Shown in pieces: positions 4,637 through 10,420 of a DNA stretch of 64,000 nt (the first letter of the stretch is position 1; each line of letters begins with the position of its first letter). Below the pieces are notes generated by a model. It worked only from the letters and a program-made list of their open reading frames with translations. It did not search any database and was not told where the DNA came from. The position numbers were made by a program, and so were the translations under genes. This stretch comes from Candidatus Magasanikiibacteriota bacterium (GTDB taxonomy: Bacteria > Patescibacteriota > Patescibacteriia > Magasanikbacterales > 2-02-FULL-50-9b), in NCBI GenBank assembly GCA_943349075.1, contig CALQYY010000001.1, positions 8,312 to 72,311 on the forward strand, read 5' to 3'.

Positions 4637-6235
4637 ATGTTAACAACACCGCAAAAAATAGTAGAAGCAACCGTACATTCGGTTGATTTGATTGCTCATG
4701 GTGTTAAAAAGATTTCGTTCAAAGTTAACGGTAATTTTAGCTTCACACCGTCGCAGTATGTTTGGCTTGAAATTCTGGATGGTCAAATCGCTGATAAAAA
4801 AGGAACACGAAGAGCTTTCTCAATTTTAAATACTCCTAATGATGAAAATGTCATTGAGATTGTTGCGAGAATTAGCGAGAGCGGCTACAAACAAAATTTG
4901 TTTGCGCTTAAGTCGGGTGATCGTGTTTTATTGCATGGGCCTTTTGGATGTTCTTTTGTTTTGAACGAAAAGAATCTCCCAAAAAACCTAATGCTTATAG
5001 CTGCGGGCGTTGGTATAGCACCATTTTTGTCAGTTATTCGAAATATTAAGGACAAGAAAATTCCGATTAATTGTTTTTTGGTTTATCTTAATAACGATAA
5101 AGAATCAACGCCTTTTATTGAAGAGATTGAAGAAATTAAATCAAAAAATAAATTTTTTGATTATATTATTTCGTATGAAAATTTTACATGGGAGAGCGCA
5201 AAAAAATTGAATAATGATTTTTCTGAACAGTCTGTTTGGTGGGTTGCTGGACCTCAAGCAATGGTTGACCATACTTTTCTCGAGCTTGAAGGCGCGGGGA
5301 TATCAAAAAATAGCATGGTTTTTGAGAATTATTATCCGACGGTTCGAAATAATTTGACTGCAGAAAAAATCGCTGAGCAATTTGTTGGCAATAATATTTT
5401 TGCAAAGGCAATTCAGAATTCAACAAATCACACAGTTATTACGGATTACAACGGAGTTGTTTTGTTTGCAAACCTCGCTGCAAGTCGAATTACGGGTTAT
5501 ACCTCAGATGAGATTATTGGAAATACCCCTCGATTGTGGGGAGGTCTCATGGATGGAGATTTCTATAAAAGTTTTTGGGTAAAAAAACGATCAGGCCTTC
5601 CATTTGAAGGTGAAATTATGAATCGTCGTAAAAACGGAGATGTGTATTTTACGATTGCACATATAGCTCCGATTCTTGATGAGGACAAAAATATAATCGG
5701 CTATATTGGGACTGAAGAAGATATTACAGAATTAAAAGCGAAGGAGGAAAAAGTCAGAAATAGTGAGATGCGATTTAAGTTTGCTTTTGAAGGAAGTCGC
5801 GATGGTTTGTGGGATGCAAATCTAGAAACGGGTTCAACATTTTTTTCACAAAGATCGCTTGAGATTGTTGGGTGCGGAAAAGAAGATCAGATAGCGTCTA
5901 TGAGTAAATGGAAAGAGTTTATTCTTGCAGAAGATCTTGCGAGAGTTGAGGAGGAGTGGGCTGCACATCTAAGTGGTGCAAAGCCATATTACGAAAGTGT
6001 CTACAGAATTCAGTGTAAAAATGGTAGTGAGGTAAAGTGGGTATTGGATCGCGGCCTAATCACAGAAAGAGACGCGCGCGGAAAGGGTTTGCGCGCCGTT
6101 GGTACTTTTACAGACATAACAGAGTCGAAAGAAAAAGAGAAAGAGTTAGAGTTGATGAATTCGGCTATGATAGATCGAGAATTGGTTATGGTGAATTTGA
6201 AGAAACGCATAAAAGAATTGGAGTCACATCTATGA
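4637..6235 (+). CDS. ferredoxin-NADP reductase-like FAD/NAD(P)-binding oxidoreductase fused to two PAS domains
   Basis: N-terminal FNR-type RxFS (RRAFSIL) FAD site and GVGIAPF NAD site. These are followed by two PAS blocks (ANLAASRITGYTSDEIIG... and WDANLETGSTFF...) and a short C-terminal helical motif, DRELVMVNLKK. Confidence 0.6.
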   Translation: MLTTPQKIVEATVHSVDLIAHGVKKISFKVNGNFSFTPSQYVWLEILDGQIADKKGTRRAFSILNTPNDENVIEIVARISESGYKQNLFALKSGDRVLLHGPFGCSFVLNEKNLPKNLMLIAAGVGIAPFLSVIRNIKDKKIPINCFLVYLNNDKESTPFIEEIEEIKSKNKFFDYIISYENFTWESAKKLNNDFSEQSVWWVAGPQAMVDHTFLELEGAGISKNSMVFENYYPTVRNNLTAEKIAEQFVGNNIFAKAIQNSTNHTVITDYNGVVLFANLAASRITGYTSDEIIGNTPRLWGGLMDGDFYKSFWVKKRSGLPFEGEIMNRRKNGDVYFTIAHIAPILDEDKNIIGYIGTEEDITELKAKEEKVRNSEMRFKFAFEGSRDGLWDANLETGSTFFSQRSLEIVGCGKEDQIASMSKWKEFILAEDLARVEEEWAAHLSGAKPYYESVYRIQCKNGSEVKWVLDRGLITERDARGKGLRAVGTFTDITESKEKEKELELMNSAMIDRELVMVNLKKRIKELESHL

Positions 6236-8275: not shown

Positions 8276-10420
8276 ATGTATAAGATTATTTTTGGATTAC
8301 TAGTATGCTTGCTCTATTCTCAGGGGGTTGCTCAGGCAAGTGATGGTAGTGGTTTGGTTAACAAAACAAATCCTTTTGTTGTTGCTATCGAAAAAGACTA
8401 CCCACCATTTTTGTTTTTTGAAAATAATGAGGTGCAAGGATTGTCATTTGATTATCTAAAATTGGTTTCAAAAATAATGGGACAGCAAGTTCAATTTACT
8501 GAACCCTTGCAGTTAAATGAAATGCTCGAATCGATAAAAAATGGTAAGAGCAATATCCTTATTGATATAACGAAAACACCCGATCGCGATCAATATTTGG
8601 AATTTTCAAATTCATATATTGATGCGCCAGCAGTTGTTGTTGCAAGAAAAAACCACATAAGTGTCTGGGATGGTGGGGGGTCAAATACTGGAATAACTAT
8701 TGCTGCAGGAAAATCGTATGGAGTCGTTTCGTTTCTCAGAGCTCGGTACCCTAAGGCAGTTATTGTTGAAATGCCGACTGATTATGATGTTCTAAAAGCA
8801 GTTTCACTTAACGCAGTAGATGTGGGCGTTTTAGATGTTGGCAGCTACTCGTATTTACAAAAGAAAATTAATTTTGAAAACCTAACAATTCTTGGAAACT
8901 CAGGATTCTTGTATTCTCTGAGCTTTGCTGTTTTGGAAAAAGATAAAGAATTCATTCCGCAGCTAAATAATGCTATCGCATTAATTTCTGAAGATGAAAA
9001 GACGGGTATATATTCAAAATGGATTTCTACTTATGCGAATGAAGATGTTTTGTTGGTTTCAAAACTAACAAAAGAAATTGTGGGAGGTATCTTAGGATTT
9101 GTTCTAATTGTTATTTTGTGGAATTTGATTTTGCAGAAAAAAGTTAAGCAGAGAACAGCAGAACTCGAAAAAGTCCAAAAAGAGATTGATGAGTCGCTTG
9201 TGCGAAGTAGAAAAGAAGCGCTTGTGTATCATGATGAGTCGGAGACTAAAACAACAAAGCTTGAGAAAACAAAAAAAGCGATGTTAAATATTTTGGAAGA
9301 TATTCAGCAAGAAAAAACAGCGCTTTCGCTCCTCACACGAAAATTCAAGATTGCTACAGAATCGGCAAAAATTGGTGTGATGGAAATGGATATTGCGGCG
9401 AATCGTATCTACGGCGATGACATTACATGTGCTTTATACGGGGTTGAAGGTCTTGAGTTTGAGTGTACATTTGAAAAGTGGATGTCATTTGTACACTCAG
9501 ATGATAGAAAAAGGGTCTCAGATAAGATGAATAAATCAATGCAAGACGGCTCAATGTTTGAGGATATCTTTAGAATTATTCGGCCGTCTGGTGAGACTCG
9601 GTATATTAAGGGTTACGCTCAGATTGATTTTGATGAGAAGCATAATCCAGTTAAAATGGTTGGTGTGAATTATGATGTAACTCACGAAAAAGAGGTTGAT
9701 TTGGAAAAGACGGAATTTGTTTCACTTGCGTCGCATCAGCTGAAAACTCCAATCGGATCAATTTCGTGGAATCTCGAAATGCTTGAAAATGGTGACTACG
9801 GAGACCTGACGGACACACAAAAAGAGATTGTTTCTGAAATGTATCTCATGAGCCGGAGAATGAACGAGCTCGTAAACAGTCTTTTGAATGTTTCACGCAT
9901 AGAGCTTGGGGTTTTCATTATTGAACCAGAACCTGTTGATTTTGGTAAATTATGTGACGAGGTTTTGCTTGAACTTAAGCCTCGTATCGAAACCAAAAAG
10001 CACGAAGTATCAAAGACTTATACGGGAAATATACAAAATATTCCTGCAGACCCTAAACTGCTTCGCATAATATTTCAGAATTATCTGTCGAATGCGGTTA
10101 AATATACGCAGGATCATGGAAAAATTGAAGTTAAGATTGTGGCCGATAGCGCGAATGTGCTTGTAAGCGTTTGGAATAATGGAGATCCAATTCCAGAAAA
10201 AGATAAGGAAAAGATTTTTGGAAAAATGTTTAGAGCAAGCAATGCGCAGGCGCAGGACCCTGATGGAAATGGGCTTGGCTTATATCTGGTTAAAAAGATT
10301 ATTGAAAATGGGGGTGGCAAGGTCTGGTTTGAGTCGTCAAAAGAAAAGGGAACAACGTTTTATATTTCAATTCCACTTACCGGGATGGTCCGCAAAGAGG
10401 GAACTAAAAAGCTTGACTAA
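8276..10420 (+). CDS. sensor histidine kinase with a periplasmic family-3 solute-binding domain, a PAS domain, HisKA and HATPase_c
   Basis: Signal peptide, an SBP_bac_3-like domain, a TM segment and a PAS domain. The H-box is [13 protein letters not shown] and the G-boxes are [11 protein letters not shown]. Confidence 0.8.
   Translation: [714 protein letters not shown]

Follow-up and report, generated by a model that had tools for sequence, protein, structure and literature searches.

Two sensor proteins without kinase domains share a C-terminal helical module and are encoded upstream of a histidine kinase in a Candidatus Magasanikiibacteriota bacterium

To our knowledge, the route by which the very many output-less sensor-domain proteins encoded in genomes pass on their signals is largely unexplained. 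Here, we describe a cluster of three genes in a stretch of 64,000 nucleotides (the window) from a Candidatus Magasanikiibacteriota bacterium (GenBank assembly GCA_943349075.1, contig CALQYY010000001.1, positions 8,312 to 72,311 of the forward strand), in which two sensors without kinase domains, the products of genes 1 and 2, are encoded upstream of a histidine kinase, the product of gene 3. The two sensors share a conserved helical module at their C-termini. The cluster is best read as one kinase plus two non-covalently attached input proteins. There is good, if indirect, support for a functional link between the kinase and genes 1 and 2, and it is plausible, though somewhat short of probable, that the shared helix is the element that couples the proteins physically. 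The features that matter for this reading are the following (positions refer to the window):

4637..6235, + strand: gene 1, 532 amino acids (aa), a cytoplasmic sensor without kinase domains composed of an FNR-like module, a flavin-type PAS domain, a second PAS domain and the C-terminal module
6128..6232, + strand: C-terminal module of gene 1 (…KELELMNSAMIDRELVMVNLKKRIKELESHL), found by regular expression and by an independent hidden Markov model (HMM; E 2.4e-9)
6232..8274, + strand: gene 2, 680 aa, a sensor without kinase domains that has four transmembrane (TM) segments, two extracytoplasmic domains and a 62-aa cytoplasmic tail
8164..8271, + strand: C-terminal module of gene 2 (…IIESNKLNQLMVDRELAMIELKKKTK), found by regular expression and by the independent HMM (E 3.6e-8)
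8276..10420, + strand: gene 3, 714 aa, with the order SBP_bac_3, TM segment, long helical linker, PAS_3, HisKA and HATPase_c
9407..10381, + strand: transmitter cassette of gene 3 by Pfam, consisting of PAS_3 (aa 378-465), HisKA (aa 478-544) and HATPase_c (aa 592-702)

Three lines of evidence suggest that genes 1 and 2 signal via the kinase encoded downstream, as had been proposed in the original prediction: fused forms, a conserved gene order and an excess of kinases directly downstream of module-bearing genes. In the following, L-numbers denote genomic loci or contigs of relatives and P-numbers retrieved proteins. As to the fusions, the homologues of gene 2 come in two forms, i. e. short proteins that end with the module, and long proteins of 1030-1126 aa with the architecture PorA-CHASE-TM-KKAVLNVLEDVQDEK-PAS_3-HisKA-HATPase that do not carry it (P0008, P0009, P0014, P0015, P0017 and P0019). 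The homologues of gene 1, a large family in the Parcubacteria, are likewise either short (FNR-PAS(-PAS)-module) or long (FNR-PAS(-PAS)-PAS_3-HisKA-HATPase), and the long form is again devoid of the module; the fusions with the architecture FNR-PAS-PAS-histidine kinase are P0315, P0331 and P0341. The cassettes of the long forms are nearly identical to the cytoplasmic part of gene 3, both in the FNR-PAS proteins P0341, P0315 and P0331 and in the PorA-CHASE protein P0008. Pairs of proteins that are fused in one case and separate in another are a classical indicator of functional interaction.

The order of the genes is kept in six further Parcubacteria contigs (L001, L003, L087, L088, L089 and L090). 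L001 has the same three genes, with 62% identity, at the same chromosomal place. Candidatus Nomurabacteria L088 encodes a short gene 1, a short gene 2, a MASE6-PAS-histidine kinase and a receiver. A short gene 1 followed by a fused PorA-CHASE-histidine kinase is present in L087 and L090, with two additional receivers in the former and none in the latter, and in L089 the short gene 1 precedes a PAS-histidine kinase and two receivers. Overall, the short form of gene 1 is located upstream of a kinase with a cassette of the gene 3 type in seven out of seven contexts, and the short form of gene 2 in four out of six. In L003 (36% identity), the three genes are followed by genes for a receiver, a 223-aa unknown protein, a second receiver and a GT2/cellulose-synthase-like glycosyltransferase (positions 9336-12268 of L003), an arrangement that hints at a cell-envelope polysaccharide output.

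The third line of evidence is statistical. We searched a single genome of each GTDB species for the back-translated core of the module, obtained at least 600 pattern matches, of which 514 were confirmed, and kept the 79 best-matching loci. In these, open reading frames (ORFs) of at least 100 aa were called greedily, HisKA-type kinase cores were identified with phmmer, and duplicates were removed. The first non-module gene downstream (+1) encodes a kinase in 27 of 92 cases (29%) and the second (+2) in 12 of 69, whereas the first gene upstream (-1) does so in only 6 of 74 (8%). Among the genes located three or more positions away, which served as background, 18 of 340 (5.3%) encode kinases, so that the frequency at +1 is about five times the background (Fisher's test, p = 7e-4 for +1 versus -1 and p = 1.9e-9 for +1 versus background). 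A search of the neighbour sets with the Pfam model HATPase_c gave the same picture, with 27 of 96 genes on the downstream and 7 of 90 on the upstream side. The kinase count is conservative, as illustrated by the +1 gene of L012, a HisKA_2 kinase that was overlooked by the phmmer seeds. Many of the junctions of module genes are 4-nucleotide overlaps. The other genes at +1 code for receivers, REC-SpoIIE phosphatases, FIST, B12-binding and solute-binding proteins.

The module itself is helical, comprises about 45 residues, and follows the pattern ELE+xN+xx[VI][DG]RELxMxELK with the core [VI][DG]RELxMxELK. Position-specific conservation extends over its whole length (v.ERT.EL..KN.ELE+FN+LfV[GD]RELKMIELK+rIkELE); in this profile the positions fixed by the selecting regular expression are conserved by construction, the flanking positions are not. 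Among the 509 six-frame ORFs of the window, the expression RE[LIVM].M[LIVM].[LIVM]K matches only the C-termini of genes 1 and 2. Both contain the core in the form that defines the family, [VI][DG]RE[LIV]xM[IV]x[LM]K after ELExxN and no more than about 50 aa from the C-terminus: ELELMNSAMIDRELVMVNLKK with 9 aa to the end in gene 1 and SNKLNQLMVDRELAMIELKK with 3 aa to the end in gene 2. An HMM built solely from 113 unrelated genomic copies of the motif detected both genes with the E-values listed above, with no further match among the 509 ORFs and none in reversed sequences. The shared C-terminal peptide that had been noticed in the initial reading of the DNA is borne out. The module is kept in the gene 1 orthologues of L001, L003, L087 and L088, and all retrieved short PorA-CHASE homologues (660-711 aa, down to 29% identity) terminate with N+xM[VI]DRE[LKV]xM[IA]E[LM]K. 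A heptad pattern runs through the module, and an invariant arginine occupies a core position with an unusually wide hydrophobic face around it (L, F, V, L, M, I, L); such a helix would be more in keeping with a buried position in a bundle than with a simple zipper of two strands.

Is this motif found elsewhere, or is it a generic coiled-coil heptad? A profile made from 18 short-form termini was compared with 1.84 billion cluster representatives and matched 17,760 of them at E<=1e-3 and 2,961 at E<=1e-10; the motif is sequence-specific, and the circumstance under which the original prediction was to be given up does not hold. Among the 139 top-ranked matches, no more than 30 residues follow the core in 119 of the 125 proteins that match the regular expression (median 15), and the matches shown that do not match it also have the motif in their last 60 residues. 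The distance between core and stop codon is 7-47 residues across 115 genomic copies. When 20 longer carriers were analysed with Pfam, 19 contained sensor domains only, one gave no match, and none had an output domain. The sensor domains of the carriers include PAS, GAF, HAMP, dCache, CHASE, CHASE4, PocR and CheR-PAS_10. Genes 1 and 2 fit this class, with N-terminal sensor domains and no output domain recognised by Pfam. The 79 loci are from bacteria (Patescibacteria, Geobacteraceae, Desulfuromonadales, Smithellaceae, Fibrobacterota, Planctomycetes, Nitrospirae, Holophagaceae and Bacteroidota) as well as from archaea (Methanoperedens and the DPANN groups Woese-, Nano- and Aenigmarchaeota), and some of them contain tandem arrays of up to five genes for module-bearing sensors.

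Several further observations concern the carriers. Loci with tandem arrays of three to five module sensors (L012, L015, L016, L035, L043 and others) come from Geobacteraceae, Desulfuromonadales, Smithellaceae and Methanoperedens. Sensor genes and genes for periplasmic binding proteins (Phosphonate-bd, ABC_sub_bind, NMT1) frequently alternate in these arrays, and a kinase gene is usually found at the end. A subclass of the module continues as …ELKKQVNEL..+.G..P.Y… with a conserved Gly/Pro/Tyr tail (L023, L038, L040, L042, L049, L065, L074, L081; P0096, P0091), mainly in Fibrobacterota, Planctomycetes, Bacteroidota and Holophagaceae. A gene for a 5'-3' exonuclease is located just upstream of module sensors in 7 of 90 upstream neighbours, namely in Saccharibacteria loci (e. 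g. L086, positions 2171-3070), which is probably conserved synteny within this group. Mini-proteins of 41-90 aa that consist of the motif only, obtained in a word-indexed search, were considered as free peptides. This idea was dismissed, as their contexts show fragments of gene calls, such as a frameshifted PAS gene in L085 (4084-5150) and fragmented ORFs in L086 (4001-5153).

The module appears to have escaped description. No model was found on it in the local copies of Pfam and NCBIfam up to E = 10, no chain in the PDB matches it, and in the full-text literature the motif strings do not occur and no description of the module was found under output-less sensors or split kinases. The caveat is the precomputed label PF28175, which is attached to two HAMP-containing fragments, and is neither in our local Pfam copy nor on most carriers; it probably models a coiled coil adjacent to HAMP. 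With this reservation, the module is apparently undescribed. A dedicated terminal module of specific sequence, by which a very large class of sensors without kinase domains can be recognised, appears to be new. The idea that it is a degenerate HisKA helix or pseudo-H-box ([GD]RELKM compared with SHELRTP) was rejected: hhalign returned a probability of 4%, and only the upstream coiled coil aligned. A few proteins carry two modules, either in tandem (P0175, P0176, P0184) or on both sides of a CBS pair (PAS-module-CBS-CBS-module in P0182 and P0194), which suggests that the module can pair with itself. In a single-sequence AlphaFold2 (AF2) model of P0184 both modules are helical, at a mean predicted local distance difference test (pLDDT) score of 54, with which their packing cannot be judged.

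Gene 3 is the complete histidine kinase with solute-binding and PAS domains that had been expected: Pfam recognises SBP_bac_3, PAS_3, HisKA (53 bits) and HATPase_c (90 bits), the H-box reads SHQLKTP, and both the DHp domain and HATPase_c of a HisKA-type kinase are present. It is the only kinase in the window. Between the TM segment and PAS_3 there is a helical linker of about 85 aa, which contains a second conserved helix:

9281..9301, + strand: MLNILED core of the 'K.A(L/M)LN(I/V)LED' helix (LNxLED helix), gene 3 aa 336-342, in the linker between TM segment and PAS domain, found by regular expression

In the sampled loci, the expression K.A[LM][LM]N[ILV][LM]ED matches 29 of 68 kinases, none of 115 module-bearing sensors and 2 of 690 other proteins. 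In the kinases, the helix is located between the membrane or sensor domain and the PAS or DHp domain. Gene 3 has it, and so do the fused forms and all other kinases of the conserved cluster. The LNxLED helix and the C-terminal module were never found in the same protein in the loci L006-L084.

The product of gene 1 combines a reductase module with two PAS domains:

4637..5341, + strand: FNR-like FAD/NAD(P)H oxidoreductase module, aa 1-235, assigned by Pfam, NCBIfam and PDB relatives
5402..5731, + strand: PAS 1, flavin-binding type, aa 256-365 (PAS_9, 63 bits)
5840..6106, + strand: PAS 2, aa 402-490 (PAS_3)

The first part scores above the Pfam cut-offs for both FAD_binding_6 (26.8 bits, cut-off 21.1) and NAD_binding_1 (31.1 bits, cut-off 22), the NCBIfam models of the reductases BenC, MmoC and PaaE align to aa 5-234, and the relatives in the PDB are flavodoxin and ferredoxin reductases (1fdr, 1tvc, 1krh, 2pia). 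A FAD barrel and a NAD(P) Rossmann domain with the RxYS, GxxS/T and GxGxxP motifs of FNR-like proteins are present, the flavin and nicotinamide motifs being RRAFS, HGPFG, GVGIAP and AGPQAM. PAS 1 matches positions 4-129 of the NifL model (E 4e-19), and in the PDB it is closest to the FAD-PAS domains of MmoS (3ewk) and NifL (2gj3), with LOV and Aer ranking next. For PAS_3, the whole protein scores 89.7 bits across two stretches, the better one being aa 402-490. The architecture proposed originally, an FNR-type oxidoreductase with two PAS domains, has therefore withstood the profile search. Gene 1 is predicted to bind flavin, and its reductase module could load or reduce the PAS flavin directly. 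The fusion of an FNR-type reductase to a flavin PAS domain appears to be new and would make gene 1 a compact candidate for an NAD(P)H redox sensor. The exact protein is present in public collections of metagenome-assembled genomes, where it is labelled just 'PAS domain S-box protein'.

Gene 2 has hydrophobic segments at aa 19-37, 267-285, 296-314 and 600-618 and two extracytoplasmic domains, in agreement with the initial description as a four-TM protein:

6628..7086, + strand: PorA/DUF3068 (PgfA-like) extracytoplasmic domain, aa 133-285 matched (Pfam PF11271, 63.3 bits)
7324..7884, + strand: CHASE domain, aa 365-551, between TM3 and TM4 (Pfam PF03924, 158 bits)

The CHASE assignment, like that of the FNR module, passes the Pfam profile search, and the domain is flanked by the TM segments 296-314 and 600-618, as is typical for CHASE receptors. 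The NCBIfam PgfA model matches with E 5e-14, which is below the cut-off of this model. The positions of the TM segments leave a cytoplasmic tail of about 62 aa rather than the 80 aa given before, and these residues after TM4, devoid of an output domain, have no match in Pfam or NCBIfam. Public gene calls (P0001, P0002) are likewise 680 aa long, consistent with the start at position 6232. The PorA/DUF3068 domain is also fused to ABC_sub_bind (PF04392) in proteins of about 630 aa (P0022-P0026), suggesting that these bacteria can employ it repeatedly as an extracytoplasmic building block.

The three genes are located on one strand, between the terminator of the EF-Ts gene and an orphan ORF of 893 aa:

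3938..3964, no strand assigned: strong stem-loop terminator after the EF-Ts gene, 12-bp stem with 6 GC pairs, upstream boundary of the region

The start codon of gene 2 at 6232 is part of an ATGA overlap with the end of gene 1 and is preceded by GGAG 8 nucleotides upstream. The stop codon of gene 2 (8272-8274) and the ATG of gene 3 (8276) are separated by a single nucleotide. Both junctions are as claimed in the original prediction, and from these overlaps alone co-translation of genes 1-3 by translational coupling would be expected. No strong terminator lies between genes 1 and 3; the sole terminator-like match on the + strand within the three genes is weak and located in gene 2 (8044-8063). 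With a GC content of 0.34-0.39, the cluster is AT-richer than the neighbouring housekeeping genes (0.44-0.48; positions 4000-11000), i. e. those for S2 and EF-Ts upstream and GAPDH and PGK downstream. Since the cluster holds the same chromosomal place in L001, this dip does not result from a recent insertion. The 893-aa ORF (10479-13160, + strand) is Ser/Thr-rich with a single N-terminal TM segment and has no match in Pfam or NCBIfam. Its exact sequence is absent from the protein collection, and the ORF is missing at the corresponding place in L001.

Our proposal for the cluster, which we regard as an even call, is that genes 1-3 form one operon that encodes a two-component sensor with three inputs and one transmitter. 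Gene 3 is the sole protein with kinase chemistry and would add its own solute-binding input. Gene 1 would act as a cytoplasmic redox sensor, in which an NAD(P)H:flavin reductase module is fused to a flavin PAS domain of the MmoS/NifL type, and gene 2 as a membrane sensor that exposes its CHASE and PgfA-like domains outside the cell. In both sensors, the helical module of about 45 residues stands where other Parcubacteria have the fused PAS_3-HisKA-HATPase cassette. The module may be a coiled-coil association element that connects the sensors with one another or with the long helical linker of the kinase encoded next to them; in that case, the ligand or redox state of genes 1 and 2 could modulate the autophosphorylation of gene 3. 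The response regulator is presumably encoded outside the window, and judging from the relatives one or two single-domain receivers would be expected. We infer both the direction of regulation and the physical association through the module.

A number of observations weigh against this proposal. About 70% of the module-bearing sensors have no kinase at +1, and in L004 and L005 the short gene 2 stands alone. The neighbour statistics were obtained with a simple greedy ORF caller, with detection of HisKA-type kinases by phmmer only, and on the 79 best-matching loci. The LNxLED helix was tried as a docking partner and gained no support from adjacency, with matches in 13 of 28 adjacent and 16 of 40 other kinases of these loci (p = 0.63). 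Of the earlier claim, signalling through the downstream kinase has been strengthened indirectly, and a docking role of the shared C-terminal helix may be regarded as plausible. The two-module proteins fit a pairing of modules with each other at least as well as docking of the module to a kinase. Finally, concerning the output of the pathway, no adjacent cognate response regulator of gene 3 and no receiver domain at all was found in the 64 kb when the six-frame ORFs were searched by phmmer with CheY, PhoB, Spo0F and two Parcubacteria receivers as queries. The initial remark that there is no response regulator nearby is therefore correct for the window, but not for four relatives (L003, L087, L088 and L089), in which one or two receivers directly follow the kinase. 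The missing regulator is a local feature of the window rather than a property of the system.

The main rival explanation is that the module is only a homotypic zipper that di- or oligomerises the sensors, possibly joining the soluble gene 1 to the membrane-bound gene 2; communication with the kinase would then occur by other contacts (PAS-PAS or TM-TM) or not at all. The proteins with two modules, in tandem or flanking the CBS pair, suggest such module-module pairing, and the tandem arrays of up to five sensors, the helical AF2 model, albeit of low confidence, and the distribution of the LNxLED helix among kinases are all compatible with it. We nevertheless consider this explanation rather unlikely, as it accounts neither for the directional excess of kinases at +1 and +2 nor for the exact replacement of the transmitter cassette by the module in the short forms. 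One may also imagine that the module recruits a different partner or targets a cellular site, and that the proximity to kinases reflects the general clustering of signalling genes. Most module-bearing genes indeed lack an adjacent kinase, two of the short gene 2 loci are stand-alone, and REC-SpoIIE phosphatases, FIST, B12-binding and solute-binding proteins are encoded at +1 as well. However, no other family is found at this position as often as kinases, the upstream side of the very same genes has just 8% kinases, and the fusions point specifically to the kinase cassette, which makes this possibility improbable.

Full-length fused forms in the relatives could also be taken to mean that genes 1 and 2 are the decayed and truncated remains of kinases and have no role in signalling, and that the peptide is a leftover or a chance coiled coil. 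This explanation is strongly disfavoured, and we assign it hardly any probability. The fused forms are devoid of the module, which can therefore not be their remnant, and hhalign finds no relation to the HisKA helix (see above). Moreover, the core hardly varies between phyla or among the 17,760 clusters, and the short forms are conserved down to 29% identity with the module always kept.

In addition to the reading of this cluster as one kinase with two attached inputs, a more general idea is possible, although we put it forward only tentatively: the module might be a pan-prokaryotic plug domain by which output-less sensors attach non-covalently either to a histidine kinase or, in arrays, to other sensors. 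If this were true, one kinase could integrate several interchangeable inputs, in the present case from a flavin redox sensor driven by NAD(P)H and from a CHASE sensor exposed outside the cell, and a considerable part of the 'PAS domain S-box proteins' that are so far unexplained would obtain a function. Irrespective of this idea, a terminal helix is common to at least 17,760 clusters of such sensors and is linked to histidine kinases both statistically and by evolution, since the same sensors are fused to a kinase cassette in certain genomes, while in others they terminate with the module. As a coupling device, the helix would explain how multiple inputs are wired to one kinase in small-genome Parcubacteria, in Geobacter, in Methanoperedens and in DPANN archaea. 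It would also provide a simple annotation rule for these proteins and a natural part for multi-input synthetic two-component systems.

The arrangement resembles several known systems. H-NOX/HnoK and NosP/NahK are pairs in which a stand-alone sensor regulates an adjacently encoded histidine kinase. As proposed for our cluster, an output-less sensor is encoded next to, and usually upstream of, a kinase in one operon, and it acts by binding the kinase. However, the H-NOX and NosP sensors are single globular domains that are not known to have a conserved C-terminal docking helix, whereas here multidomain PAS, CHASE or FNR sensors share a terminal module, and two of them precede one kinase. Typical CHASE receptors, such as the cytokinin receptor kinases and the bacterial CHASE kinases and cyclases, have a cytoplasmic kinase, GGDEF or cyclase output. 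They share with gene 2 the extracytoplasmic CHASE domain with flanking TM helices, but gene 2 has the 62-aa tail in place of the output and an extra PorA/DUF3068 domain. The signalling helix (S-helix), reportedly described by Anantharaman, Balaji and Aravind in 2006, is said to link two signalling domains within one protein. It is similar to the module in being a conserved coiled coil of about 40-50 residues after sensor domains, and an 'RTxEL' is often found at the N-terminal end of the wider module. The module differs in its conserved core and in being present only where no downstream domain follows: rather than lying between two signalling domains, it occupies the terminus of genes 1 and 2 and of almost every match. 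NifL and MmoS (PDB 2gj3 and 3ewk) have the FAD-PAS domains closest to PAS 1 of gene 1; unlike gene 1, neither is fused to an FNR-type reductase.

In CetB/CetA, the bipartite energy-taxis sensor of Campylobacter (PMC2886117), an output-less, probably flavin-binding protein with only a PAS domain similarly works with a separate membrane transducer, and fused equivalents (Aer) exist elsewhere. Its partner, however, is a transducer of the MCP type instead of a kinase, and no terminal motif common to the two proteins has been reported. The short LOV proteins (PpSB1-LOV and relatives; PMC4589677, PMC9758184), one of which has an adjacently encoded effector, also consist of a flavin-PAS core followed by just a C-terminal coiled-coil dimer helix without an effector domain. 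Their J-alpha helix is unrelated in sequence to RELxMxELK, and the effector that is known belongs to the LitR-type regulators and not to the kinases. Finally, CheA3/CheA4 (PMC3591291) are split histidine kinases, in which two polypeptides likewise divide the functions of a single kinase between them. There, the split is inside the kinase core and sets the phospho-acceptor apart from the catalytic part. In the cluster described here, by contrast, the core is intact, with both the phospho-acceptor and the catalytic domain in gene 3 and, according to Pfam, neither of them in genes 1 and 2, and it is the input modules that are separate proteins.

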